Virus record (IMG/VR): IMGVR_UViG_3300037473_000044
Direction: 5' to 3' (one strand)
Source: a virus
DNA: 39,989 nt
The notes under the pieces were generated by a model, which was given only the letters and a program-made list of their open reading frames with translations, did not search any database and had not been told where the DNA came from. Shown one piece after another: positions 5,211 through 37,694 of this stretch; position 1 is the first letter of the stretch; the number at the start of each line of letters is the position of its first letter. The position numbers and the translations under genes are program-made.

Positions 5211-6530
5211 GTGACAGCCGCCACGCTGTTTTCAGGCATCGGGGCTCCAGAAGTCGCCATGCCCGAGTGGGATTGGATCTGGCACGCCGAGATCGAGAAG
5301 TTCCCTGCGGCGGTCATGGCCGAGCGCCATCCGCTGTCGGTGAATCTGGGAGACGTAACCGCCGATGACTTCTGCGAACGCGCCCTCGCTATTGGACGGC
5401 CTGATGTCCTCGTCTTCGGATCGCCCTGTCAGGCGTTCTCCGTCGCCGGCCGACGCCTCGGACTGGATGATCCGCGCGGCAACTTGGCGCTCGTCGCCTT
5501 GGGAATTGTTGCGCGACTTGAGCCCACATGGTTCGTCTTCGAGAACGTTCCCGGTCTTCTGTCCTCCAGCGACGGACGAGACTTCGGGCTTTTCCTGCGA
5601 ACAGTGGATGACCTCAGGTATCACCTCGGGTGGACGCACCTGGACGCGCAGTACTTCGGAGTGGCGCAGCGGCGCCGCCGTCTGTTCGCTGTCGGCCACG
5701 CTCGAGACTGGCGCGGTCCCGCCGCCGTACTACTTGAGCCCGAAAGCCTGTGCGGGCATCCTCCGACGCGCGGCGAAGCGCGGGAAGACGTTACCGGCAC
5801 CCTTAGAGCGGGCTCTGGTGGCGGTTGCGGGCCTGGGCCAGACGAAGCCGCGCGAGGCATGTTAATCGCTCCGACGCTTCGCGCTGGAGGCAATAGGACT
5901 GGCGGTGATCGTCCTCCAGGCACAGACGTGGATACCGTCGAGAGTTTGGTGGTAGCGCGGGCGCTCACGACGTCAAATCAGCGGATTGACTACGAAACCG
6001 AGACGCTGATCGCGCACTCACTCCGCGCCGATGGCTTCGACGCATCAGAGGATGGCACAGGACGCGGCACGCCGCTCGTACCAGTGGCCTACGCAATCGG
6101 CTCACATGCTGGCGCGGCAGATGGCGATCAAACGAACCGATCGCACGCGAAGGGCGGTCCAGTCGGCCTGAACATCAGCGAAGAAGTCGGCTACGCGGTG
6201 CGCGCCGGTCGACCACCCGCAGTAGCGTTCGACGCGCGGCAATCTGACGTCATCCAATACGGCGACAAGACCGGTCCGCTCGACACGGATGGCCAGACCA
6301 TCGGCGTGCTCACGTCAGGCGTGCGGCGATTGACCCCGCGCGAGTGCGAAAGACTTCAGGGACTACCCGACGACTACACGCTGATCACCTACCGCGGCAA
6401 GCCTGCGGCTGACGGGCCGCGCTACAAGGCGATCGGCAACAGTATGGCCGTCCCAGTCGTGCGCTGGATTCTCTCGCGCCTGGCGTTCATGGATGCCTTC
6501 CAGCGGCAACAGGAAAGGCAGACTGCATGA
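5211..6530 (+). CDS. DNA (cytosine-5)-methyltransferase, orphan
   Basis: Motifs are I (LFSGIGAPE), IV (GSPCQAFS), VI (ENVPGLL), VIII (QRRRRLF), IX (RLTPRECERLQGLPDDY) and X (GNSMAVPV). The GTG start follows GGAGGG. No restriction endonuclease partner is nearby. Confidence 0.9.
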   Translation: MTAATLFSGIGAPEVAMPEWDWIWHAEIEKFPAAVMAERHPLSVNLGDVTADDFCERALAIGRPDVLVFGSPCQAFSVAGRRLGLDDPRGNLALVALGIVARLEPTWFVFENVPGLLSSSDGRDFGLFLRTVDDLRYHLGWTHLDAQYFGVAQRRRRLFAVGHARDWRGPAAVLLEPESLCGHPPTRGEAREDVTGTLRAGSGGGCGPGPDEAARGMLIAPTLRAGGNRTGGDRPPGTDVDTVESLVVARALTTSNQRIDYETETLIAHSLRADGFDASEDGTGRGTPLVPVAYAIGSHAGAADGDQTNRSHAKGGPVGLNISEEVGYAVRAGRPPAVAFDARQSDVIQYGDKTGPLDTDGQTIGVLTSGVRRLTPRECERLQGLPDDYTLITYRGKPAADGPRYKAIGNSMAVPVVRWILSRLAFMDAFQRQQERQTA

Positions 6531-12575: not shown

Positions 12576-12946
12576 AACCGCTGATCACGATGAGCGAGGT
12601 AGACAGGCTGGCCGCGCTTAGCTTCTGCGACTTCGTGCCGAAAACGGCCGAGACGAAGATGATCGGTAAGCTCGTGGATGAACTCGACGCCCAGCGGGCC
12701 GAGACACCACGGGAGCAGCCAGATGATCTCGTCAGCCTTCAGCTCAAGCTCGACGCCGCCACCACAGCAGTCGCACGCATGGGCGCTGAATTAGCCCGTG
12801 TGCGGCAGGAGGCGATCGACCAGTGCATCGCCGCCATTGACCACATCACGCCAGGCTACGGCTTGCTCATGGCAAGAGAGCGGCTGGAAGCCCTGCGCGA
12901 TCCCCCACCCCTCCCTCGACAAGACGGGGGACAGGGAGAGGGCTAG
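12572..12946 (+). CDS. Hypothetical protein (last gene of the + strand operon)
   Basis: ATG 12572 (MKPLITM) follows GGACGAGG and is in frame with track ORF 12548-12946. Confidence 0.55.
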   Translation: MKPLITMSEVDRLAALSFCDFVPKTAETKMIGKLVDELDAQRAETPREQPDDLVSLQLKLDAATTAVARMGAELARVRQEAIDQCIAAIDHITPGYGLLMARERLEALRDPPPLPRQDGGQGEG

Positions 12947-14412
12947 CGCGTCAGTTTCACGAAGCCGAGCCGCGGCTGTTCCGTGACACGCCATCCGTCT
13001 CGAGGTACGGCACTCCAGCCCGAAGACGGTCGTATCGCGATGGCGTGCTCGTAGGCGCCGACACGTTTGGCGAACGTCCGTAGGGCCATCGGCTCGACGC
13101 CTTCGCCCAAGTCCCGATGCTCCAGCGGCATGTCGCCCACGCCGGCCCCGCCACCGGCCCCGCCACGCTGATACGGCGCCAACTGGGCCTCTGGTGGCAC
13201 CCAGCGCGCGGCCCACGTCCACGCCTTCGCTGCGGCCTTCTGGACGGGCTGAAAGAGCCGTGAGGCCACGCCGTCGTCTGAGTGGAACGTGGACCCGGCC
13301 GCGAACATCTGCATCCCAGCGGCGAACCAAGCCGCGTCATTGGCATCCGTGGCACGCGAGCCCGGCCGAGCGACTTCCGCAAAGCCGATCGGCTCATTCG
13401 CCACCACGGGTACCTTCAGTGCGTCGACGATCTCGCCGTAGCCTCTGACGGTGCGCGGCCACTCCTCTTTCCGCTCGTGGTCGTGCGGCTCGAGATAGTC
13501 GAGAATCTTCCAGACCTTTGGAATGTCGCCATCGGGCAACTTCGTCCCGTAGGTGCGTGGCCCGAGCGCGGGGTCAATCGTGTAGCTCTCGGCGTCCTCA
13601 AAGTTTTTAAAGGCTTCGTTGCTCAAACTATGATTCACGCCCCAGGTGCCAAGCAACGCGGCCCGGATGGCGTCGATGTGCGCCTGCCTCGAGGTGCGGT
13701 CGGTCATCAAGCCGCCCGTGCCGTCTGAGCGGGCATCGGCGTCAGCGAAGTACACGAACTCGATCCGCAGGCCGCGCGATTGCGTCTCGTCTACGAACGC
13801 GCGCAGTTTCCGGTAGTAGTCGGGCGTGTTGGCCGGTGTGAACTCGCCCAAACCAGACGCTTGCGGCCCGCCGATCCCGAAGCGGTCGAACATCCCGAAC
13901 ACGCGCAGGAGGTTGAACCCGAGCATGATCCGCTCGTCCAGAATGGGGCCGATGTTCTCGCCTCTGGCGTAGCGGGCGAACAGCGCGAAGTCCGAGCAGC
14001 CGATCCACGGGAATATCGAGCCGTCCTCGCGTTTGAACAGCGTGTGGTCGACGTGCAGCGGGCCTTTCTCGCCGGCCGAGATCACCGCTGGCCGCGGGAG
14101 CGCCACCATCTCAAACGGCACGAGCACTGTGGGGTCCACAAAGTCGCTCACGGGACGCCACTGGGCCACGTAGCCGGGCACATTGACGACGACATTCAGC
14201 CCTTGCCCGAACAGGCCCGGTGTCACGGGATACGTCAGCCGGCCGTCGAAGCTGGCCGTTACCAGCCCGTTCAGCGTGATCTGCCCGGACAAGGGAGAGC
14301 CAGTCACGCTGTCACGCGCCGACATCGTGAGCTGCATTTGCGCCGGCCGCTTCGGCGGTGGCGACGGCCGACGCTTGGCAAAGAGCGCGGCGAGGGCGCC
14401 CCACAGGCTCAC
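12943..14412 (-). CDS. Glycoside hydrolase, clan GH-A (GH5-like TIM barrel) with an N-terminal beta-rich domain; candidate lysin or depolymerase
   Basis: GFNLLRVFGMF, LSNEAFKN and VVANEPIGFAE are NE(P)-type motifs typical of clan GH-A barrels. It is the last gene of the late operon, just after holin-like genes. Confidence 0.5.
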   Translation of the reverse strand: MSLWGALAALFAKRRPSPPPKRPAQMQLTMSARDSVTGSPLSGQITLNGLVTASFDGRLTYPVTPGLFGQGLNVVVNVPGYVAQWRPVSDFVDPTVLVPFEMVALPRPAVISAGEKGPLHVDHTLFKREDGSIFPWIGCSDFALFARYARGENIGPILDERIMLGFNLLRVFGMFDRFGIGGPQASGLGEFTPANTPDYYRKLRAFVDETQSRGLRIEFVYFADADARSDGTGGLMTDRTSRQAHIDAIRAALLGTWGVNHSLSNEAFKNFEDAESYTIDPALGPRTYGTKLPDGDIPKVWKILDYLEPHDHERKEEWPRTVRGYGEIVDALKVPVVANEPIGFAEVARPGSRATDANDAAWFAAGMQMFAAGSTFHSDDGVASRLFQPVQKAAAKAWTWAARWVPPEAQLAPYQRGGAGGGAGVGDMPLEHRDLGEGVEPMALRTFAKRVGAYEHAIAIRPSSGWSAVPRDGWRVTEQPRLGFVKLTR

Positions 14413-24349: not shown

Positions 24350-25471
24350 TTACGCCGCCACAATCAGCCGGTCATCTTCGAGGTTCAGCGACTGCTCATA
24401 GACCGCCCCGGATTGACGGTCTCCAACCAAATGCAGTCCCCACGTAAAACAGTGATTCACCGCGACGTGCGGGAAATAGCGCCCGTAGTTGACATCCCAG
24501 TGCGCCCGCTCATGCCACTGATCGCTCGTGATGTCATAGACCCACGTCGTCTCGAGGCCGGGCACATAGAGCACGTAGAACGTGTGCCCCTGTTCCTGAT
24601 AGCCCCAGGCGAGGGCGCCTTGATAGTTCTCGAGCTGCGTCAGCGCGTATTCGACGGCGTGCGTGGACACCCGCTGCGGGGTGTAGCCGTTCGCGCGCCA
24701 GACCACGCCAGAACCTTGTTCGTCCTGCCCGAGCCACCAGACGGTGTTGTCGAGTTCGACGGCGGTAAACGGCGCCCCGATGCCGTGCTCAATGAGCGCG
24801 CCTTGCACAGGGGTGAAGGGAAAGGAGGCGTCGCCGCTGTCGTACCACGGCGCCGTGTTGCGCGTGCCGAACAACCAGAGGTTGTCGTGCGTGCGCGTCA
24901 TCGCCACGATCTTGTCGGAGAACTGCGACTCCAAGCCGAAGTCGAGCCCGTTCCACGTCAGCCCGTCATACAGCTCGGAAATGACGAACTTGCCCGTGTC
25001 GCCATCAAGCGCGACAAAGTAGCCGTCGAAGAACAACCCTTGCACCACGTAGGTGGGGAAGTTCTCGTCGGTGATCTGCGTAAACGAACCGGACTCGAGG
25101 TCGTAGATGTAGCCACGCCCGCCCGTTGTCACGAACACCTGATGGCCGATGGCGCCGTTGCTGCACATCGTCGCGGGGAGTCCACTGACGGCGACGTAGC
25201 CGCGCACCACAGCCGTCCGAGACGGCAGAATCTCGTAGAAGGCCGCGCCCCCGACGCCAAACGCGCGCCCGTCCTGCGCGAACAGCCCTTTCACCGAGCC
25301 CGAGCCGAGAAACGCGAACATGCGAAGCCCCGGCGTGGGATAAAGCGCCCCCGACACTTTGGGCGTGCCCTGATTCGCCAGTTCCATGTACCAATTCACC
25401 GTGCGCTCGGCGTCGACCGCCTTTGAGCGCTGGCGATTGGAGGGTCCGGTCAGGCCAGGGAAGTTCGCCAT
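24350..25471 (-). CDS. Tail hub / packaged-DNA stabilisation (P22 gp10-like) protein
   Basis: The N-terminus QRSKAVDAERTVNWYMEL...ALYPTPGLRMF...VKGLF resembles the stabilisation-protein family. The position follows the adaptor gene. Confidence 0.45.
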   Translation of the reverse strand: MANFPGLTGPSNRQRSKAVDAERTVNWYMELANQGTPKVSGALYPTPGLRMFAFLGSGSVKGLFAQDGRAFGVGGAAFYEILPSRTAVVRGYVAVSGLPATMCSNGAIGHQVFVTTGGRGYIYDLESGSFTQITDENFPTYVVQGLFFDGYFVALDGDTGKFVISELYDGLTWNGLDFGLESQFSDKIVAMTRTHDNLWLFGTRNTAPWYDSGDASFPFTPVQGALIEHGIGAPFTAVELDNTVWWLGQDEQGSGVVWRANGYTPQRVSTHAVEYALTQLENYQGALAWGYQEQGHTFYVLYVPGLETTWVYDITSDQWHERAHWDVNYGRYFPHVAVNHCFTWGLHLVGDRQSGAVYEQSLNLEDDRLIVAA

Positions 25472-26226
25472 TAGCGCCCCTGCACCCCAGAGCTGCTATC
25501 GCTCAGAATGTTGTAGACGCCGGCTTGCGAGGTCAGCGCGGCATCGAGGCCGAGATCGGACATGACCGTGTTCGACCGCTGATAGATGGACAGGAACTGT
25601 CCGGCCATCTGGTCAAGCTGCTGGCTCCACGGCACGCCGTTACGGATCGCCATCCACTTCGCCAGCTCGTAGGTCAGCGCCGGCAGCGCACCAGGGGGAA
25701 AGTCGTACTGATCGTCGAGGCTCGTGAACTCGCGCAACTGCACGGGCCGGTAGAGCACGAGCGACGTGGAGTCGGTCGACGGCACCGGCCACAGTTGAAT
25801 CGTCGCGAGGCCACCCGCGAACGTCGCTTGGAAATAGACGCCCGTGAAATAGGTCGACGTCAGTTCCTTCTGCACGATCGAGGCGTAGGCGTCGTTCGTG
25901 TAGAGCGTGCGCGTGATCTCAAAGGGCTCGGACGTGCTCGTGTCGTACAGCCCGACATTCGTGATGGACGTGGGCCGCGACGTGTCGAAGTCGCCACCAG
26001 GACCAATCGTGTAGGGGTCGCTTGGACCGCCACGGCCGGCCGTGAGCGGGAACACCTCACGCGCGGTCGCCGGGATGGTCAGCGGCATCAACGACCACTG
26101 GCCGAGGATCTGATTGAGCGACCGCAGCCCCTGTTGCGCCTGCGCGGAGTCGAGCGTCTGCCCGACCTGATTGATGGCCGGAATCAGGTAGGCGTCCGTG
26201 ATGATCGACCGCGCCGTGGTGCTCAT
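25471..26226 (-). CDS. Head-tail adaptor candidate
   Basis: The N-terminus SIITDAYLIPAINQVGQTLDSAQAQQGLRSLNQILGQW is of the kind seen in podovirus adaptor proteins. Confidence 0.4.
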   Translation of the reverse strand: MSTTARSIITDAYLIPAINQVGQTLDSAQAQQGLRSLNQILGQWSLMPLTIPATAREVFPLTAGRGGPSDPYTIGPGGDFDTSRPTSITNVGLYDTSTSEPFEITRTLYTNDAYASIVQKELTSTYFTGVYFQATFAGGLATIQLWPVPSTDSTSLVLYRPVQLREFTSLDDQYDFPPGALPALTYELAKWMAIRNGVPWSQQLDQMAGQFLSIYQRSNTVMSDLGLDAALTSQAGVYNILSDSSSGVQGR

Positions 26227-26552
26227 CGGCGGGCCTCGGGAATCACCGGCACATGCGTGGAGACGGTCTTCTCGTACGCGGCGGCTTCTTCCTGCGCCAG
26301 CGCACTCATCTTCAAGTCCTGCGCGGCCCGCTCAGCGGCGAGATTGCCAATGGTCTCTTCGGCCCGCTCGAAGCGCTCTAGCGCCTCGGCCGGGTCATCG
26401 CACCAGCCCTGCCCAAGCGCCTTGTAGTACTCGTCGGAGTTGCGGACGATCTTCGTCGTCTCGCTGATCACGCGCGCATCGACGCACACGACCTTGCCGT
26501 TAGGCAGCTTCATGGCGCGAAACAGCGTCACGGGCGCATCACGCCAGCTCAT
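26223..26552 (-). CDS. Hypothetical protein
   Basis: ATG 26552 forms an ATGA overlap with the methyltransferase stop and is in frame with track ORF 26223-26600. Confidence 0.5.
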   Translation of the reverse strand: MSWRDAPVTLFRAMKLPNGKVVCVDARVISETTKIVRNSDEYYKALGQGWCDDPAEALERFERAEETIGNLAAERAAQDLKMSALAQEEAAAYEKTVSTHVPVIPEARR

Positions 26553-27112
26553 CGGTACCTCGTCAGCGCGAGCCCGCGCGGAGTCGGCAGGCGCAACCAC
26601 GGATGCACGAGCCCATCGACCACGACTTGCTCGAGATCCGCGAAAAACTCAGGGACGCCGGGATAGCTAGTCGGCACGGCCGAGTCGTGCGCGAGAATCA
26701 CGCACCGCGGCGACGCCCACTGCCGGAAGTGGCGGACTTCCACCATGCGATCGGTAAAGCCGCTGTCGACAAACAGCAGATCAATCGGCTGATCCGGTTC
26801 CACATGCGCCGCGCGGTTGGTGACGATGGTCACGGGCAGGCCCGCCGTGCGGGCGCGTGCCTGTTCGGACTTCGCGTGGACCAGTTCAATGGAAACGAGG
26901 CGCCCGCGGCCGAGATCGCGCAGCGCCAGGCCAATCTGTTCCGCCGTGTAGCCGACATACGAGCCGGTTTCGACGACGAAATCGGGCTTGAGCGCGCGCA
27001 CGAGGTCTGCCACGAAGCGCGAGACTTCAGTTTCAGTCGCCCATTCGTCCGGCGCCGACCAGCGGCCGGGCTCGGGACACTCGGGCCGAGAGGCGAGAGC
27101 TTCCGCGCGCAT
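26549..27112 (-). CDS. Class I SAM-dependent methyltransferase (O-methyltransferase / CmcI-like)
   Basis: VVETGSYVGYTAEQI is a G-x-G SAM loop. Other supporting segments are RLVSIEL and DLLFVDSG. Confidence 0.6.
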   Translation of the reverse strand: MRAEALASRPECPEPGRWSAPDEWATETEVSRFVADLVRALKPDFVVETGSYVGYTAEQIGLALRDLGRGRLVSIELVHAKSEQARARTAGLPVTIVTNRAAHVEPDQPIDLLFVDSGFTDRMVEVRHFRQWASPRCVILAHDSAVPTSYPGVPEFFADLEQVVVDGLVHPWLRLPTPRGLALTRYR

Positions 27113-27116
27113 TCGC

Positions 27117-27374
27117 CTACTGCTGGTAGAGGCCGACCATCAGCGTGGCCGTGGTCGTCGAACTCATCACGCGCTTGACCGTGACTGGCAAGACTGTTCC
27201 AGCGACACAGGTGAACTGGATGTCCTGGTTGTCTTCCATGATCGCGCGCACGATGCCCGCGCCGCCGACCCAGACAGACACCGGGTAGTGGTCGTTGACC
27301 TTTTCGCAGTCCACCGTGTCGCTCTTGGTAATCGCGCGGGCGGTGTTAAACGCTGGGAGAGTCACTTGCGGCAT
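27117..27374 (-). CDS. Head-spike base-like protein (RcGTA rcc01079-type pattern)
   Basis: ARAITKSDTVD...VWVGGAGIVRAIM...FTCVAGTVLPVTVKRVMSSTTTATLMVGLY fits the remembered a.aItPSDt...G.aG.l.v...f..v.aG.ilPirv.rV...gTtA pattern. The comparison is from memory only. Confidence 0.4.
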   Translation of the reverse strand: MPQVTLPAFNTARAITKSDTVDCEKVNDHYPVSVWVGGAGIVRAIMEDNQDIQFTCVAGTVLPVTVKRVMSSTTTATLMVGLYQQ

Positions 27375-28078
27375 TACGCCTCCACGAACTCAGGAACATC
27401 CGCGCCCCACGGCTGCATCAAGAACGGCACCGTGCCGCGGGCAAATACGACCGACCAGCCCGTTTCCGCGCTGTAGTGCGGCCAGACTTCGACGTCCGTC
27501 GTATGGCCGAATTGCACCGACGAATCGCCCCACAACTGCACGCCGGCCTCCGACAACTTGCGGCAGAAATACAAGTCGTCGTCCCACTGATCCGGCACGA
27601 ACTGCCCGAGCGCCACGTAGGGCTTCGGAATCGTGCGAAGGACCGCCGTGCGCATCAGCAAGCCGCCAAACGTCGCCGCGGTGAGCGGCACGAGCTCACC
27701 CGGTGGCGGCAGCGTGTCTTTCATGGCTTCGATCGACGGCTCCGTGCGGTCAAACCACAGCGCACGGAAGGGCGGTTGCCGGCGAAAGCTCAGCGGCACC
27801 ACCGCGTCAACCTTGGGATCTTCAAAGCGCTGCAACAGCCGAATGAGCGCATCCGGCCCAAACGTCAGGTCATCGTCAAGGAACCAGATCCACTCCGCCC
27901 CCAGCGCGAACGCCTCGTCAATGAGCCCGTTGCGGTTGGTGGCCGGGGAGCACCCCCGCCCCGTGCGGATCACCACACGAGGCGGGAGGTTGAGTTCACT
28001 GACACACGCCCAGAAGGATGACCACCGCCCCTGCACGGCGCAGGGGATGGCGATCATCACGTCGCAGGCACTAGCCAA
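27374..28078 (-). CDS. GT-A fold (family 2-like) glycosyltransferase
   Basis: EWIWFLDDDLTF is a DxD motif. Downstream are GGLLMRTAVL and DDDLYFCRKLSEAGVQLWGDSSVQFGH. Confidence 0.6.
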   Translation of the reverse strand: MASACDVMIAIPCAVQGRWSSFWACVSELNLPPRVVIRTGRGCSPATNRNGLIDEAFALGAEWIWFLDDDLTFGPDALIRLLQRFEDPKVDAVVPLSFRRQPPFRALWFDRTEPSIEAMKDTLPPPGELVPLTAATFGGLLMRTAVLRTIPKPYVALGQFVPDQWDDDLYFCRKLSEAGVQLWGDSSVQFGHTTDVEVWPHYSAETGWSVVFARGTVPFLMQPWGADVPEFVEA

Positions 28079-28670
28079 GCGTCACGCCGTAGGCGCACTT
28101 GACGCCCCAGAGTCCACGCGAGGACAGCAACGTGATGCTGTTGCCCTTGGTGGCCGCGAACGTCGCGACGTCGGACGTTGTGGTGTCGCCGTTGAAGCCC
28201 GGTGTGTACGTGACGGTGTGTGCCGCGGCGGTCGTGGAATAGATAGTCACTTCCACGCCATCGGGCGTCGCTGCGGTCGGACTCTCGAGCGTCATCGCCG
28301 CCGCTGTCGCCTTGTCCAAGAAGATCAAGGTGTCGTAGGTCGGCGGGACGATTGCCCCGCTGGCGCCATACGACACGATGTTTTTCTTGTAGAGGCTCGG
28401 GTTGTTGGTCCAGCCCGGCTGCGGAGACGGGAACTCCGTCGCCGTGCCGGCCGTGACCCCCGCCAGAATCGGATGGGCACGCTGTACGCCGCCCTGCTTG
28501 CCGCCACGCTGGACGGGGATGAGCCCGCCAGCCGTGGCGACGTCCGTCTGGACCATGTATTCGCCATCGACCAACCAGACCCAGCCCACGGCGTTGCCCG
28601 TGGTCGAGGTCGGATAGATCGTCTGGTCGTTGAAGCCGCATGCCGCGGCCAGCGTCGTGTTGAGCGCCAT
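28071..28670 (-). CDS. Thr/Ala-rich capsid-associated protein (decoration or head-fibre candidate)
   Basis: ATG 28670 forms a TAATG overlap with the coat-gene stop and is in frame with track ORF 28071-28697. Confidence 0.55.
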   Translation of the reverse strand: MALNTTLAAACGFNDQTIYPTSTTGNAVGWVWLVDGEYMVQTDVATAGGLIPVQRGGKQGGVQRAHPILAGVTAGTATEFPSPQPGWTNNPSLYKKNIVSYGASGAIVPPTYDTLIFLDKATAAAMTLESPTAATPDGVEVTIYSTTAAAHTVTYTPGFNGDTTTSDVATFAATKGNSITLLSSRGLWGVKCAYGVTLG

Positions 28671-29950
28671 TAGCTTGCACCTCCGGCGACGACGCACGCC
28701 CAGTCAGGCCGATACGCCAGCCAGCCATAGAAGCAGTCCAGACGCGAAATCTTCTGGTCCGACTGCGCGTTGTACTGCCGCACGTAGCGGGCGCTCCAGC
28801 CCGTCTCCGCGTCGCTCACCATCGCCACATCGGCGCCCGGCAGATCGCTATCCGCGTCCACCATGCCGAGCACGAAGGCTTCGCGGTTGTAGACGAGCCC
28901 CTGACGAGTCGCGGTCGCCGTCCAAGTGCCCGAGCCGGTCGTGATGGTCGAGCCGAGCGGGATGATCGGCGCGTTGTTGACCGGCAGCGCGTCCACGTTG
29001 GCAAGCGCATTCGGAATCGGTCCCGACCCGACCGCGATCAGCGGCGGCTGGAACTGAATCGTGGCGTCGACACCCGAAGACGTCGTGGCCTGCGTCACCG
29101 TCAACTGCATCAACTGGCCCGTGGACGTGTAGTTCTGGGGGTTGATTTCGTAGACGTTGGCAATCGTGAACTTGTCCCCGACCTGATAGGTCGTGGCCGA
29201 ACTCGCGTTGCCGTCCGTGACGATGCTCGTCATGCCATCCGAGAACGTCGTCTGGTTAACGAGCGGTGTGAACGTGGTCGATGAGCCCGTGGTCCGCTGC
29301 CAGGTGTTCTGGTCCATGTACCACTCGTCGATACCCAGCCCGTTCTCGCCACTCGAGAACTGACCCGTGCGCCAGTTCTTGCCGATGGACGAGGCCGGAT
29401 TGAAGATCGTGGCGTTGGAGCCCACGAGCGTCGCGCTCATGTTCGGGGAGATGACCGCCACGAGGTTGTCGTCTGGCACCGCGACGTTACGGAGCTTGGT
29501 GACGGCATCCAGATAAGTCTGGATGGACGTGGGGGTCGTGCCAGGTGTGCCGACCGAGTGCGCCACCAGCGGTGAACAGCGCGTCAGCCCATCAAAGTCG
29601 ATGGTGTTGGCGAGCTGGACCGACGCCGGCTTGATGTAGCGCGAGCGCACTTCCTCGACCGAGAACGTGGCGTCGAACGTCGACCACGAAATCCCGATGT
29701 TGGCCTGGTCGGTGATGTTGAACCGGACGGTGACGTCGTTGATACCCTGCTGTTGGAACGCCTGCCCCTTAGTGGTGGCATAGCGCTGGGGGAGTCGCAG
29801 CGAGAATCCCGATCCCACCTTCGCACCCCCGGCCTTGAAATCGGCCGAGTACTTGCGGGTGACGTTGGCGCCGAACTTCAGTGAGTTCTGCGCGATGCGG
29901 GAGACTTCCTTGACAACCCACGTCGGCGTGACGAAGGCGTTTGCGGCCAT
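28670..29950 (-). CDS. Major capsid protein (P22 coat-like)
   Basis: The ORF is 426 aa and directly follows the scaffold gene. The N-terminus FVTPTWVVKEVSRIAQNSLKFGANVTRKYSADF resembles the P22 coat-protein family pattern. Confidence 0.75.
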   Translation of the reverse strand: MAANAFVTPTWVVKEVSRIAQNSLKFGANVTRKYSADFKAGGAKVGSGFSLRLPQRYATTKGQAFQQQGINDVTVRFNITDQANIGISWSTFDATFSVEEVRSRYIKPASVQLANTIDFDGLTRCSPLVAHSVGTPGTTPTSIQTYLDAVTKLRNVAVPDDNLVAVISPNMSATLVGSNATIFNPASSIGKNWRTGQFSSGENGLGIDEWYMDQNTWQRTTGSSTTFTPLVNQTTFSDGMTSIVTDGNASSATTYQVGDKFTIANVYEINPQNYTSTGQLMQLTVTQATTSSGVDATIQFQPPLIAVGSGPIPNALANVDALPVNNAPIIPLGSTITTGSGTWTATATRQGLVYNREAFVLGMVDADSDLPGADVAMVSDAETGWSARYVRQYNAQSDQKISRLDCFYGWLAYRPDWACVVAGGAS

Positions 29951-31004: not shown

Positions 31005-31280
31005 TTATTTGACGGATGCTGTCAAATTATCGACACCTTGCGCGATCTTGTCAAGGCGTCGCAAGCGAATGCCGTCCCAGCGATATAGATTTTTCAGGTC
31101 TGCGCTCGCATACGGGCCAGGTTTCGCGCTGTGATCGGAGAACACGAGCTTGCCGTTGGCGTCCCGCTCCACGCGGCGGTCAATCATCGCCAGCGTATGG
31201 CGTTGCAGCACGGGCGGCGGCTCAGGACGAATGCCTCGAGGTTCCAGATTGAGCGCCTTGCGGCGTTTCGCGTCACCCAT
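31005..31280 (-). CDS. Hypothetical protein
   Basis: The ORF is 91 aa and overlaps the portal stop by 8 nt. Confidence 0.5.
   Translation of the reverse strand: MGDAKRRKALNLEPRGIRPEPPPVLQRHTLAMIDRRVERDANGKLVFSDHSAKPGPYASADLKNLYRWDGIRLRRLDKIAQGVDNLTASVK
31026..31054 (-). promoter_or_regulatory. Sigma70-like promoter candidate upstream of the scaffold and coat genes
   Basis: On the minus strand, TTGACA (31054-31049), a 17-nt spacer and GATAAT (31031-26). It lies inside the 3' end of the 91-aa ORF, about 27 nt upstream of the scaffold ATG. Confidence 0.4.
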
Positions 31281-36423: not shown

Positions 36424-36495
36424 TGCGAAAAGGCGTGTTCCAGACACCGATACCGCTTAGAAGGCCGGTGCTCTATCCAACTGAGCTACGGGCGC
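36424..36495 (-). tRNA. Degenerate tRNA-Arg(TCT)-like element with an intact 5' half only; candidate attP core
   Basis: Minus strand from 36495 reads GCGCCCG TA GCTC AGTTGGATA GAGC A CCGGC CTTCTAA, then GCGGT ATC GGTGT CTGGAAC ACGCC TTTTCGC. The 3' anticodon stem, T-loop and 3' acceptor strand do not fit a functional tRNA. Confidence 0.55.
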
Positions 36496-37694
36496 GTGGT
36501 GGAATTATCTAAGGGAATACGCGCTTTTCGGCCTGTCCAGCCTTGTTTGACGCGTTCCGCGAACCGCTGCGACTTGCTCATGTTTTCTAACGTTTTCTCA
36601 TGCGGTGTCTGGGATGTCGTCCCAATATGTCGTCCCAACGCTTCCGCCTTCTGCTTGAGCACGCGCGCTGTCGCGTTCAGCCGATAGCGCTGACTCGTCT
36701 TGATGCCGGCGTGCTGTAACAGGGCCATCACGAGATAGTCGTCCCCCGTGAGGTCAAACGCAATCGTCGCGAACGAGTGCCGCAAGCTGTAGGGGCTCGC
36801 GCCCGTGACGCCCACCCGCTTGGCGGCGATATGAAACGTCCGCCACATCGACGAATTGGAGAATGAGCCCCAGCCATCGACGTCGCGCAAGTCTTCAAAC
36901 GCCTGCACGGCTTGGGGCAACAGCGGCAGGATGCTCGCGCCCGTCCCTAGTCCCTTCGCGCGGCCGCGCACGCGTAACGTCGCCGCGGCGAAGTCCACAT
37001 CGCCCGGCTCCACGCGCTTGAGCTGACTCGCCGGCAGGCCCGTGTAGGCCAGGATACGCAGCCGAATCTTCGTCACCGATCGCTCTTTGCGCGGATGGCC
37101 GGCGTTCTTGGTCTGCGTCGCGCCCCAGTCCAGAACCTCATCGAAGATGCGCTGAATCGTGGCGTAGTCCAGCTCGCGCGGCACGGCGGACGGCTCAGGC
37201 GCTTCTTCCACGTCACGAACCGGGTTGTGGGCTCGAGATCCGTCCAGTACTGTGTAGAGATTCGACAAGGCCCGAAGACGCAGGTTGACCGTATGCGGCG
37301 CCAGTGGTGGTTTGTCGCCACGCGGGGCCATCAGCCAGGCGTCCCGCTGCGTGCGAATGTCGGCTGACGTGATTCGGTCCCGTTGGCGTTTCTTGAACAC
37401 CGCCACCCACGCCTGAATCTGCCGTTCCCGATCCTTATACGAGGGCATCGCCCGTACGGCTTTGAGATACGTCTCCGCGTCCGCCTTGAACATGCCGCGG
37501 GTGGCCCGCTCACTGCGCTGGACGTGCGTCTTCGCTTGCGCGGCTTTCCGCCAGGCCACCATCACGGACAGCTTCGTGTCTTTCGGGAACTGGCGATACA
37601 GCTTCGGCCGATGCCGGCCTTGACTGACCGCCGCGCGGTAGCCGGCACCGTGCCGGTAGATGCCCGGCGGGAGCCTGCTTACGCCCATGCCCAC
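36486..37694 (-). CDS. int: Tyrosine integrase
   Basis: The C-terminal catalytic region carries SLRHSFAT (HxxR box) and LLQHAGIKTSQRY (catalytic Tyr). The start is GTG 37694 or ATG 37688. The stop TAG (36486-36488) lies inside the tRNA-like element. Confidence 0.85.
   Translation of the reverse strand: MGMGVSRLPPGIYRHGAGYRAAVSQGRHRPKLYRQFPKDTKLSVMVAWRKAAQAKTHVQRSERATRGMFKADAETYLKAVRAMPSYKDRERQIQAWVAVFKKRQRDRITSADIRTQRDAWLMAPRGDKPPLAPHTVNLRLRALSNLYTVLDGSRAHNPVRDVEEAPEPSAVPRELDYATIQRIFDEVLDWGATQTKNAGHPRKERSVTKIRLRILAYTGLPASQLKRVEPGDVDFAAATLRVRGRAKGLGTGASILPLLPQAVQAFEDLRDVDGWGSFSNSSMWRTFHIAAKRVGVTGASPYSLRHSFATIAFDLTGDDYLVMALLQHAGIKTSQRYRLNATARVLKQKAEALGRHIGTTSQTPHEKTLENMSKSQRFAERVKQGWTGRKARIPLDNSTTRP
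36614..36638 (+). repeat. Pair of direct ATGTCGTCCCAA repeats (candidate integrase arm-type sites)
   Basis: Copies are at 36614-36625 and 36627-36638, 13 bp apart. They have the same orientation and core (GTCGTCCCA) as the pair at 36389-36411, and lie inside the integrase 3' coding region. Confidence 0.7.

Follow-up and report, generated by a model that had tools for sequence, protein, structure and literature searches.

What are sugar-modifying enzymes doing inside the head operon of a phage? The question is raised by the IMG/VR virus record IMGVR_UViG_3300037473_000044, a stretch of 39,989 nucleotides (nt) that we refer to as the window. In it, a glycosyltransferase (GT) and an S-adenosylmethionine (SAM)-dependent methyltransferase (MT) are encoded between the gene of the coat protein and that of the head-to-tail adaptor. 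We favor, at about even confidence, the reading that these two enzymes form an accessory late virion-glycosylation cassette in the head operon of a temperate podophage with a P22-type coat. The analysis shows which families the enzymes belong to, that their catalytic motifs are intact, that the operon is coupled, that the GT is linked with the MT and that the GT repeatedly lies next to capsid genes.

In the proposed mechanism, the GT, a soluble minimal GT-A enzyme, would be made in the cytoplasm alongside the coat protein and would move a sugar from a nucleotide sugar to a hydroxyl group of a protein on the particle surface. The likeliest acceptor would be p199, the protein encoded immediately upstream, with the coat or the spike base as alternatives. 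The MT, which is similar to cation-dependent O-methyltransferases, would then methylate that sugar, and the released particles would bear a short methylated glycan on the head surface, which could alter adsorption, stability or recognition. We infer four elements of this scheme, namely that the acceptor is a protein, which protein it is, what the sugar is and that the methyl group is placed on the sugar.

Layout of the cassette and its two enzymes

Five genes, all on the minus strand, lie between the coat gene and the adaptor gene. They are listed here with these two neighbors, from the coat onward; lengths are in amino acids (aa).

28670–29950, minus strand: major capsid (coat) protein of the P22 type, 426 aa; PF11651 over the full length, E 3.4e-21
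28071–28670, minus strand: p199, a Thr/Ala-rich protein of 199 aa with two domains, following the coat gene
27374–28057, minus strand: GT, a minimal soluble GT-A glycosyltransferase, 227 aa from the ATG at 28057; PF00535
27117–27374, minus strand: p85, a head-spike base protein of the RcGTA Rcc01079 family, 85 aa; NCBIfam NF048002
26549–27112, minus strand: MT, a class I SAM-dependent methyltransferase of the Methyltransf_24 / cation-dependent O-methyltransferase type, 187 aa; PF13578
26223–26552, minus strand: p125/109, a small conserved head-module protein, 109 aa from the ATG at 26552, with ATGA overlaps at both ends
25471–26226, minus strand: head-to-tail adaptor, 251 aa; phrog_12985, E 8e-26; the downstream boundary of the cassette

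An initial annotation of the window had listed the first four genes after the coat as a Thr/Ala-rich protein, a GT-A glycosyltransferase, a spike-base-like protein and an O-methyltransferase-type enzyme. All four are present on the minus strand, and all four identifications were correct. The genes do follow the coat as described, with the correction that a fifth small gene (26223–26552) separates the MT from the adaptor. Relatives keep p125/109 between the MT (or p85) and the adaptor whether or not the GT and the MT are there. The genes were also confirmed to be embedded in the late head operon, with stop/start overlaps or near-contacts from the coat through the adaptor. Read from the sequence, the coat/p199 junction is a TAATG stop/start overlap, and the GT/p85 junction is another; p85 and the MT are separated by a gap of 4 nt, and the MT/p125/109 and p125/109/adaptor junctions are both ATGA overlaps. 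At none of the junctions from the coat to the adaptor did a sequence scan find a terminator-like or promoter-like site. One terminator-like site inside the MT gene (26796–26777) was dismissed because such sites are rarer here than in shuffled sequence (2 found versus 4.7 expected).

Hidden Markov model (HMM) searches, which the initial annotation had suggested, placed both enzymes in Pfam families above the cutoff: the GT in PF00535 (E 2.6e-8, 34.4 bits against a gathering cutoff of 23.3) and the MT in PF13578 (E 3.3e-10, 41.2 bits against a cutoff of 26.3). The GT frame has an alternative TTG start at 28078; the ATG at 28057, which is also the start in the database copy P0001, is more likely. 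The DDD of the LDDD motif is encoded at 27869–27877. The GT motifs LDDD, DD.YFC and GH are invariant in 28/28 homologues, as are the residues L60, D61, D62, D63, D161, F164, C165 and H185, and D160 is nearly so.

An AlphaFold2 (AF2) model of the GT has the GT-A fold, with a predicted local distance difference test score (pLDDT) of 91.4 and a predicted template modeling score (pTM) of 0.90. It matched 127 PDB structures at E ≤ 1e-3, and the top 50 of them are almost all GT-A glycosyltransferases, with a few nucleotidyltransferases. The closest solved fold is that of STIV A197 (2c0n; E 4.4e-10, template modeling (TM) score 0.71 by target length). The next neighbors are Mimivirus R699, the human collagen hydroxylysine galactosyltransferase GLT25D1, LH3 and GalNAc-Ts, and most of these act on proteins. 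The GT carries no transmembrane segment (maximum Kyte-Doolittle hydropathy over 19 residues, 1.50) and is acidic, with an isoelectric point (pI) of 4.7 and a family median of 5.2. Against NCBIfam it gave a weak match to GlfT1. A match to the PHROG of the T4-type beta-glucosyl-HMC-alpha-glucosyltransferase (E 0.0055) covers 30 residues around the DxD motif and was judged uninformative.

The MT family profile recovered O-methyltransferase family 3/COMT structures from the PDB, with 7cvu as the best match (9e-8), and MT homologues include matches to Pfam RMNT_CmcI. In the family alignment, V46, E48, T49, G50 and G54 of motif I (ETG...G) are invariant, E76 of motif II is nearly invariant, and D116, H142 and D143 are invariant throughout. 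The MT is soluble (maximum 19-residue hydropathy 0.83) and acidic (family median pI about 5.2). A tblastn search of phage genomes with the MT gave no match. An MT homologue with 44% identity was seen at the locus L092 (6001–6558) in a non-structural context, beside a gene with a glucosaminidase domain and with ThyX and dCMP deaminase genes nearby, so that the MT family also occurs outside head modules.

Distribution of the cassette in related phages

The proteins of the window were used to score about 100 related loci, drawn from metagenomes, IMG/VR and GenBank. The gene order coat-p199-GT-p85-MT was found in seven distinct phages whose coats are at least 67% identical to that of the window (L003/L010, L004/L005, L013, L014, L015, L090 and L091). 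The GT and the MT are accessory in this clade, and in the isolated relatives PBR31 and MW202483 the coat is separated from the adaptor or tail tubular protein by just two small genes. Where the GT is at least 44% identical to that of the window, it lies just downstream of p199, and directly so in most loci, over a range of coat identities from 32% to 93%; in L039/L104, an opposite-strand homing-endonuclease-like open reading frame (ORF) stands between p199 and the GT. The identities of the coat, p199 and GT to those of the window are 93%, 40% and 36% in L091, and 85%, 38% and 35% in L090. Judged by these identities, p199 and the GT diverge together and independently of the coat.

The GT and the MT co-occur in every complete locus of this clade. 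In L006 and L099, a different MT of the Methyltransf_24/RMNT_CmcI type directly follows the GT. When 1.84 billion cluster representatives were searched with a profile, 368 members of the GT family were recovered at E ≤ 1e-30, and 6 of the 20 long cluster representatives tested are fusions of a GT with a Methyltransf_24 domain; in one fusion, the MT domain also passes the Pfam threshold for rhamnosyl-O-methyltransferase/CmcI. Other long representatives carry a second GT domain (four proteins; GT_PLOD, GT2 or GT17) or repeated GT domains (one), and two are joined to a radical-SAM domain. Single-protein scans of IMG/VR gave no genomic context for the fusions, whose alignment was too divergent as a query. 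The co-occurrence, the different Methyltransf_24 enzyme in the same slot and the fusions suggest that the GT and the MT act as a working pair, in agreement with the initial annotation.

Distant homologues of the GT (21–38% identity) were found in the head modules of unrelated phages. In L100, the homologue lies two genes after a phrog_9953 major head protein; in L101, it comes after the genes of an HK97-type portal and a collagen-like protein; in the Manatee Spring phages L112/L113, the order is scaffold, major capsid protein, a 100-aa protein and the GT, followed in L113 by tail tubular protein A; and in L114, a phrog_752 major head protein and a GT4 are encoded nearby. Since the GT family thus stands beside the major capsid gene in unrelated phages, a particle-related role is favored over seroconversion. 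The initial annotation had argued from the late placement of the genes that the enzymes act on virion proteins; the recurrent capsid-side position of the GT favors the particle-related part of that argument, with the acceptor still putative.

Three further features of the relatives were observed. First, L101 encodes a collagen-like repeat protein (1929–2549) between the portal and the distant GT homologue. The fold neighbors of the GT include collagen galactosyltransferases, and one fused relative has a PLOD-type GT domain; collagen-like fibers are possible acceptors in some phages. Second, an extra GT4-type (GT-B) glycosyltransferase is encoded in the structural region of L090 (10424–11524) and of L114 (1574–2617). 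These extra enzymes, like the fusions with GT or radical-SAM domains, suggest longer or more elaborate glycans in those phages. Third, homing-endonuclease-like ORFs, identified by reading the sequences rather than with HMMs, occur at the junctions of the coat, p199 and the next gene in L012 (6561–7103, minus strand), L039 (6589–7110, minus strand) and L097 (3585–4409, plus strand). Two of them are related to each other (173–180 aa, opposite strand) and one is GIY-YIG-like and lies between the coat and p199. The coat/p199/next-gene junction seems to be an insertion hotspot.

Candidate acceptors on the particle surface

p199 is the first candidate acceptor because it adjoins the GT and co-varies with it, and we regard it as the likeliest one; the coat protein is a possible alternative. 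p199 is rich in Thr (15.6%), Ala (13.1%) and Gly (11.6%), and it gave no match in Pfam, PHROGs, NCBIfam or the PDB sequences. The AF2 model of p199 (pLDDT 86.5) consists of two beta domains, and the C-terminal beta-sandwich carries the conserved motif TAAAHTVTY...GDTT(S/T)SDVATF. A Foldseek search of the PDB gave weak matches (best E 2.4e-3) to tailspike proteins and the Pa223 capsid spike. Against BFVD there were 112 matches at E ≤ 1e-3, and the named ones are tail fiber, tail, collagen-repeat and pectate-lyase proteins. Because the structural alignments are short and of low root-mean-square deviation, the N-terminal part shared with fibers and tailspikes is probably an anchor-like beta-barrel. 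The domains are modular, in that other phages carry the C-terminal domain alone. Of about 85 related contigs, nearly all have p199 after the coat gene, and in loci holding both genes it follows the coat, nearly always directly, down to 29% coat identity. From its model, structural matches and modular domains, p199 looks like a short particle-surface appendage.

Longer proteins resembling the N-terminal domain of p199 are encoded as extra genes in L011 (3105–3896, 263 aa), L012 (8515–9423, 302 aa) and L019 (3517–4206, 229 aa), with the resemblance confirmed by BLAST for L011 and L012 and seen by eye only for L019. These three relatives lack the GT and the MT, and none of the loci with the GT showed such a longer paralogue. 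The extra protein may be an alternative decoration of the same docking site.

The spike base is the other candidate beside the coat. p85 matched the NF048002 model, 'spike base protein, RCAP_Rcc01079 family', at E 3e-13 (49.9 bits against a cutoff of 28), and its homologues in L012 and L099 are also above this cutoff; its best match among PDB sequences is Rcc01079 itself (6tb9, E 0.012), and it matched phrog_12296 at E 4.6e-9. In RcGTA, a pentamer of the base protein sits on the capsid pentons and holds one fiber, which binds capsule polysaccharide (PMC7296036). p85 thus shares the family of Rcc01079, the base of a head spike that is completed by the Rcc01080 fiber; the window differs in that a six-frame pattern scan found no convincing match to an RcGTA-type head fiber with an N-terminal (I/L)-x repeat, and the partner of p85 may bind by another mode. 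The systems also differ in that the RcGTA genes are not described with a GT or MT partner, and in that p85 occurs with or without the two enzymes. The initial annotation had tied the GT and the MT to the head-spike gene. This tie was not supported: p85 and p199 are present without the enzymes in L011 and in L012, whose coat is 97% identical to that of the window, and p85 is placed elsewhere in the head module of other relatives. The link of the GT and the MT to the spike-base gene is positional only.

Alternative explanations and known systems

Several observations weigh against a virion-glycosylation cassette. The protein acceptor is putative, and GT2/GT-A enzymes and family-3 O-methyltransferases use many acceptors, including polysaccharide, lipid, small molecules, tRNA and DNA. 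The GT and the MT are dispensable, since close relatives do without them: at least three phages with coats at least 67% identical to that of the window (L012, at 97%, L011 and L016/L017) lack both genes. p199 persists in every one of them, as do p85 and the small protein in L011 and L012. In L097 and the Manatee Spring phages, the GT is present without an MT. As for p199, no alignment column distinguishes phages with the GT from those without it, the gene upstream of the distant GTs is not p199-like (hhalign probabilities < 1%), and mosaic recombination alone makes adjacent genes co-vary.

The explanations set against virion glycosylation involve genes outside the head module. By gene content, the window, of about 40 kb, is a temperate-type phage genome with the following features.

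Early genes, plus strand: AAA_24, NinB, C-5 cytosine DNA methylase and DnaB
5211–6530, plus strand: C-5 cytosine DNA methylase of the early region; PF00145, E 4e-48
36486–37694: integrase

We consider it improbable that the pair modifies the host envelope, altering lipopolysaccharide, capsule or another surface glycan for seroconversion or for receptor masking on lysing cells, with a lipid-linked or polymer acceptor at the inner membrane face. Such a role would suit the GT2 family, which is dominated by polysaccharide enzymes, the weak GlfT1 match, the temperate lifestyle indicated by the integrase, and the RMNT_CmcI-type MTs, which to judge from the name of the Pfam family methylate cell-wall glycolipid sugars. 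However, the genes are translationally coupled in the late operon, 8 kb from the integrase, and their junctions carry no promoter-like site; therefore, expression in the lysogen is not expected. In contrast to Gtr-type seroconversion GTs, which are membrane-anchored, work with flippase/GtrC partners and are encoded near the lysogeny module, the GT of the window has no transmembrane segment and is encoded in a late head operon at that distance from the integrase, and no Gtr-like flippase or membrane partner appeared among the window ORFs scanned, in searches that were not aimed at one. The genes are also near-absent from cellular genomes: a pattern scan of 185,579 species genomes recovered one locus, on a 9.7-kb contig of a metagenome-assembled genome (MAG) with a phage capsid gene.

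It is likewise improbable, in our estimate, that the enzymes act on some other cytoplasmic target, such as a non-structural protein of host or phage, a tRNA or a small molecule, and that their genes are mobile cargo at a permissive junction of the head operon. The family-3 O-methyltransferases include B. subtilis YrrM (PDB 5zw3, among the matches of the MT profile), which we take to be the tRNA enzyme TrmR. The homologue in the non-structural context of L092, the gain and loss of the GT and the MT within the clade, and the insertion hotspot at the coat/p199/GT junction, with its homing-endonuclease-like ORFs in L012, L039 and L097, all accord with cargo. Insertion at a random permissive site, however, leaves unexplained both the tight translational coupling and the recurrence of one relative position in four or more unrelated capsid lineages.

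The third alternative, DNA hypermodification, would have the GT glycosylate a hydroxymethylated pyrimidine in the phage DNA, in the manner of the 5mYOX/TET- or ThyS-associated phage GT-A enzymes, and the MT modify the glycan or the base. Phage GT-A DNA glycosyltransferases have R...DDD...EDY/F motifs, and some of their clusters are near structural genes (Pyle et al., bioRxiv 10.1101/2023.12.21.572611). The GT family has the similar, though generic, motifs R, LDDD and (E/D)D(L/I)(Y/F)F, and it shares with these TET/5mYOX-associated enzymes, including TAGT, both the GT-A fold with DDD and (E/D)D-aromatic motifs and a C5-cytosine methylase in the same genome. Ten window ORFs were scanned against Pfam, among them all four unannotated early ORFs of at least 200 aa, with smaller ORFs partly covered; they included no 5mYOX/TET or thymidylate-synthase-like enzyme, and the four early ORFs gave no Pfam match at E ≤ 0.01. 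We regard this explanation as very unlikely, given that the C5-methylase lies 21 kb away, that the GT does not match Pfam TAGT (PF20691) at E ≤ 0.1, that its fold neighbors are A197, R699 and collagen GTs rather than the TarP/JGT reported for DNA GT-As, that its family is acidic (median pI 5.2), that it is encoded in the head module with a position fixed between capsid and adaptor genes in several lineages, and that its fusion partner is an O-methyltransferase-type domain and not a DNA methyltransferase.

Virion glycosylation can be compared with what is known of glycosylated particles. To our knowledge, such particles have been demonstrated among phages only for mycobacteriophages. Freeman et al. 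2023 (Cell Host Microbe 31:1216) reportedly dealt with virion glycosylation in phages including Che8 and Myrna, and reportedly found little evidence of glycosylated particles in the wider phage population. Later papers that cite Freeman et al. 2023 describe glycans on the C-termini of the mycobacteriophage capsid and tail tube subunits. Cluster O mycobacteriophages have an O-methyltransferase and glycosyltransferases in the structural operon, represented in Corndog by gp35 with the GTs gp36-38, and these enzymes were proposed to put methyl and glycan groups on the capsid (PMC4351075). The initial annotation had held a GT/O-methyltransferase pair of this kind to be undescribed, which was too strong because the Cluster O structural operons already contain such a cassette (PMC4351075).

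The mycobacteriophage cassettes and that of the window are alike in combining small GT-A-type GTs with a SAM-dependent O-methyltransferase in a late-expressed virion structural operon. Corndog gp35, in which Pfam recognizes TylF and Methyltransf_24 domains, and the MT of the window are both above the Methyltransf_24 threshold. The two systems differ in several respects. The window belongs to a podophage that has a P22-type coat and whose host is probably a proteobacterium; this phage encodes one GT, whereas Corndog has three; and its cassette lies between the coat and the adaptor, whereas that of Corndog lies between the portal and the protease. Comparison by hhalign detected no homology between the GT and Corndog gp37 or gp38 (probabilities of 2.1% and 0.5%), and the MT could not be aligned directly with gp35 (0.2%). 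The window cassette may do the same job as the mycobacteriophage ones, in a podophage probably of proteobacteria. What is new here is the P22-coat podophage setting, together with the A197-like minimal GT family and its recurrent capsid-adjacent placement.

Two viral systems outside the bacteriophages offer further likenesses. STIV A197, the best structural match of the GT, is likewise a minimal, virus-encoded enzyme of about 200 aa, and it has been considered a candidate for glycosylating the major capsid protein of STIV; its acceptor is also putative. It differs in its sequence (15% identity), in belonging to an archaeal virus with another capsid lineage and in having no MT partner. The chlorovirus PBCV-1 glycosylates its capsid in the cytoplasm with virus-encoded enzymes and O-methylated sugars, and its A064R protein joins GT and methyltransferase domains. 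The union of GT and MT in one polypeptide recalls the GT-Methyltransf_24 fusions in the family of the window GT, with the difference that PBCV-1 is a giant virus of eukaryotes whose atypical glycans are N-linked.

A broader proposal, which we put forward tentatively and think rather doubtful, is that the A197-like minimal GT-A family, often paired or fused with Methyltransf_24 or further GTs, is widespread and represents a general capsid-surface glycosylation system of tailed phages far beyond Actinobacteria, with p199 as a dedicated acceptor in the P22-coat clade. If this were true, particle glycosylation would be far commoner than thought, which would bear on receptor and defense interactions, particle stability, the immunogenicity of phages in therapy and phage display. 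The small, soluble and acidic GT/MT pair would then be an easy system for reconstitution.

The remaining observations concern the genome around the cassette. The minus-strand late operon runs through terminase, P22-type portal, scaffold, P22-type coat, adaptor, head-closure, tail and ejection genes. The last large gene on this strand (12943–14412, minus strand) encodes a 489-aa protein with no match in PHROGs. A sigma-70-like promoter match at 31054–31026 on the minus strand (TTGACA, a 17-nt spacer and GATAAT; 11/12 consensus positions) lies just upstream of the scaffold start (30999) and inside a small gene of 91 aa; one match as good as this is expected by chance in the region scanned. At the positions where tblastn placed the adaptor in L006 (30% identity) and L007 (26%), the genes carry the Pfam SU10_adaptor domain. 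The coat also matched the phrog_283 major head protein (E 1.9e-46). Isolated phages showed no DNA similarity to the window, and coat identities to podophages such as Xanthomonas PBR31 and Vibrio VvAW1 are 27–36%. Identical GT and MT proteins are present in one database source on a 41,952-bp MAG contig labeled 'Rhizomicrobium sp.', and the host of the phage is probably a proteobacterium.

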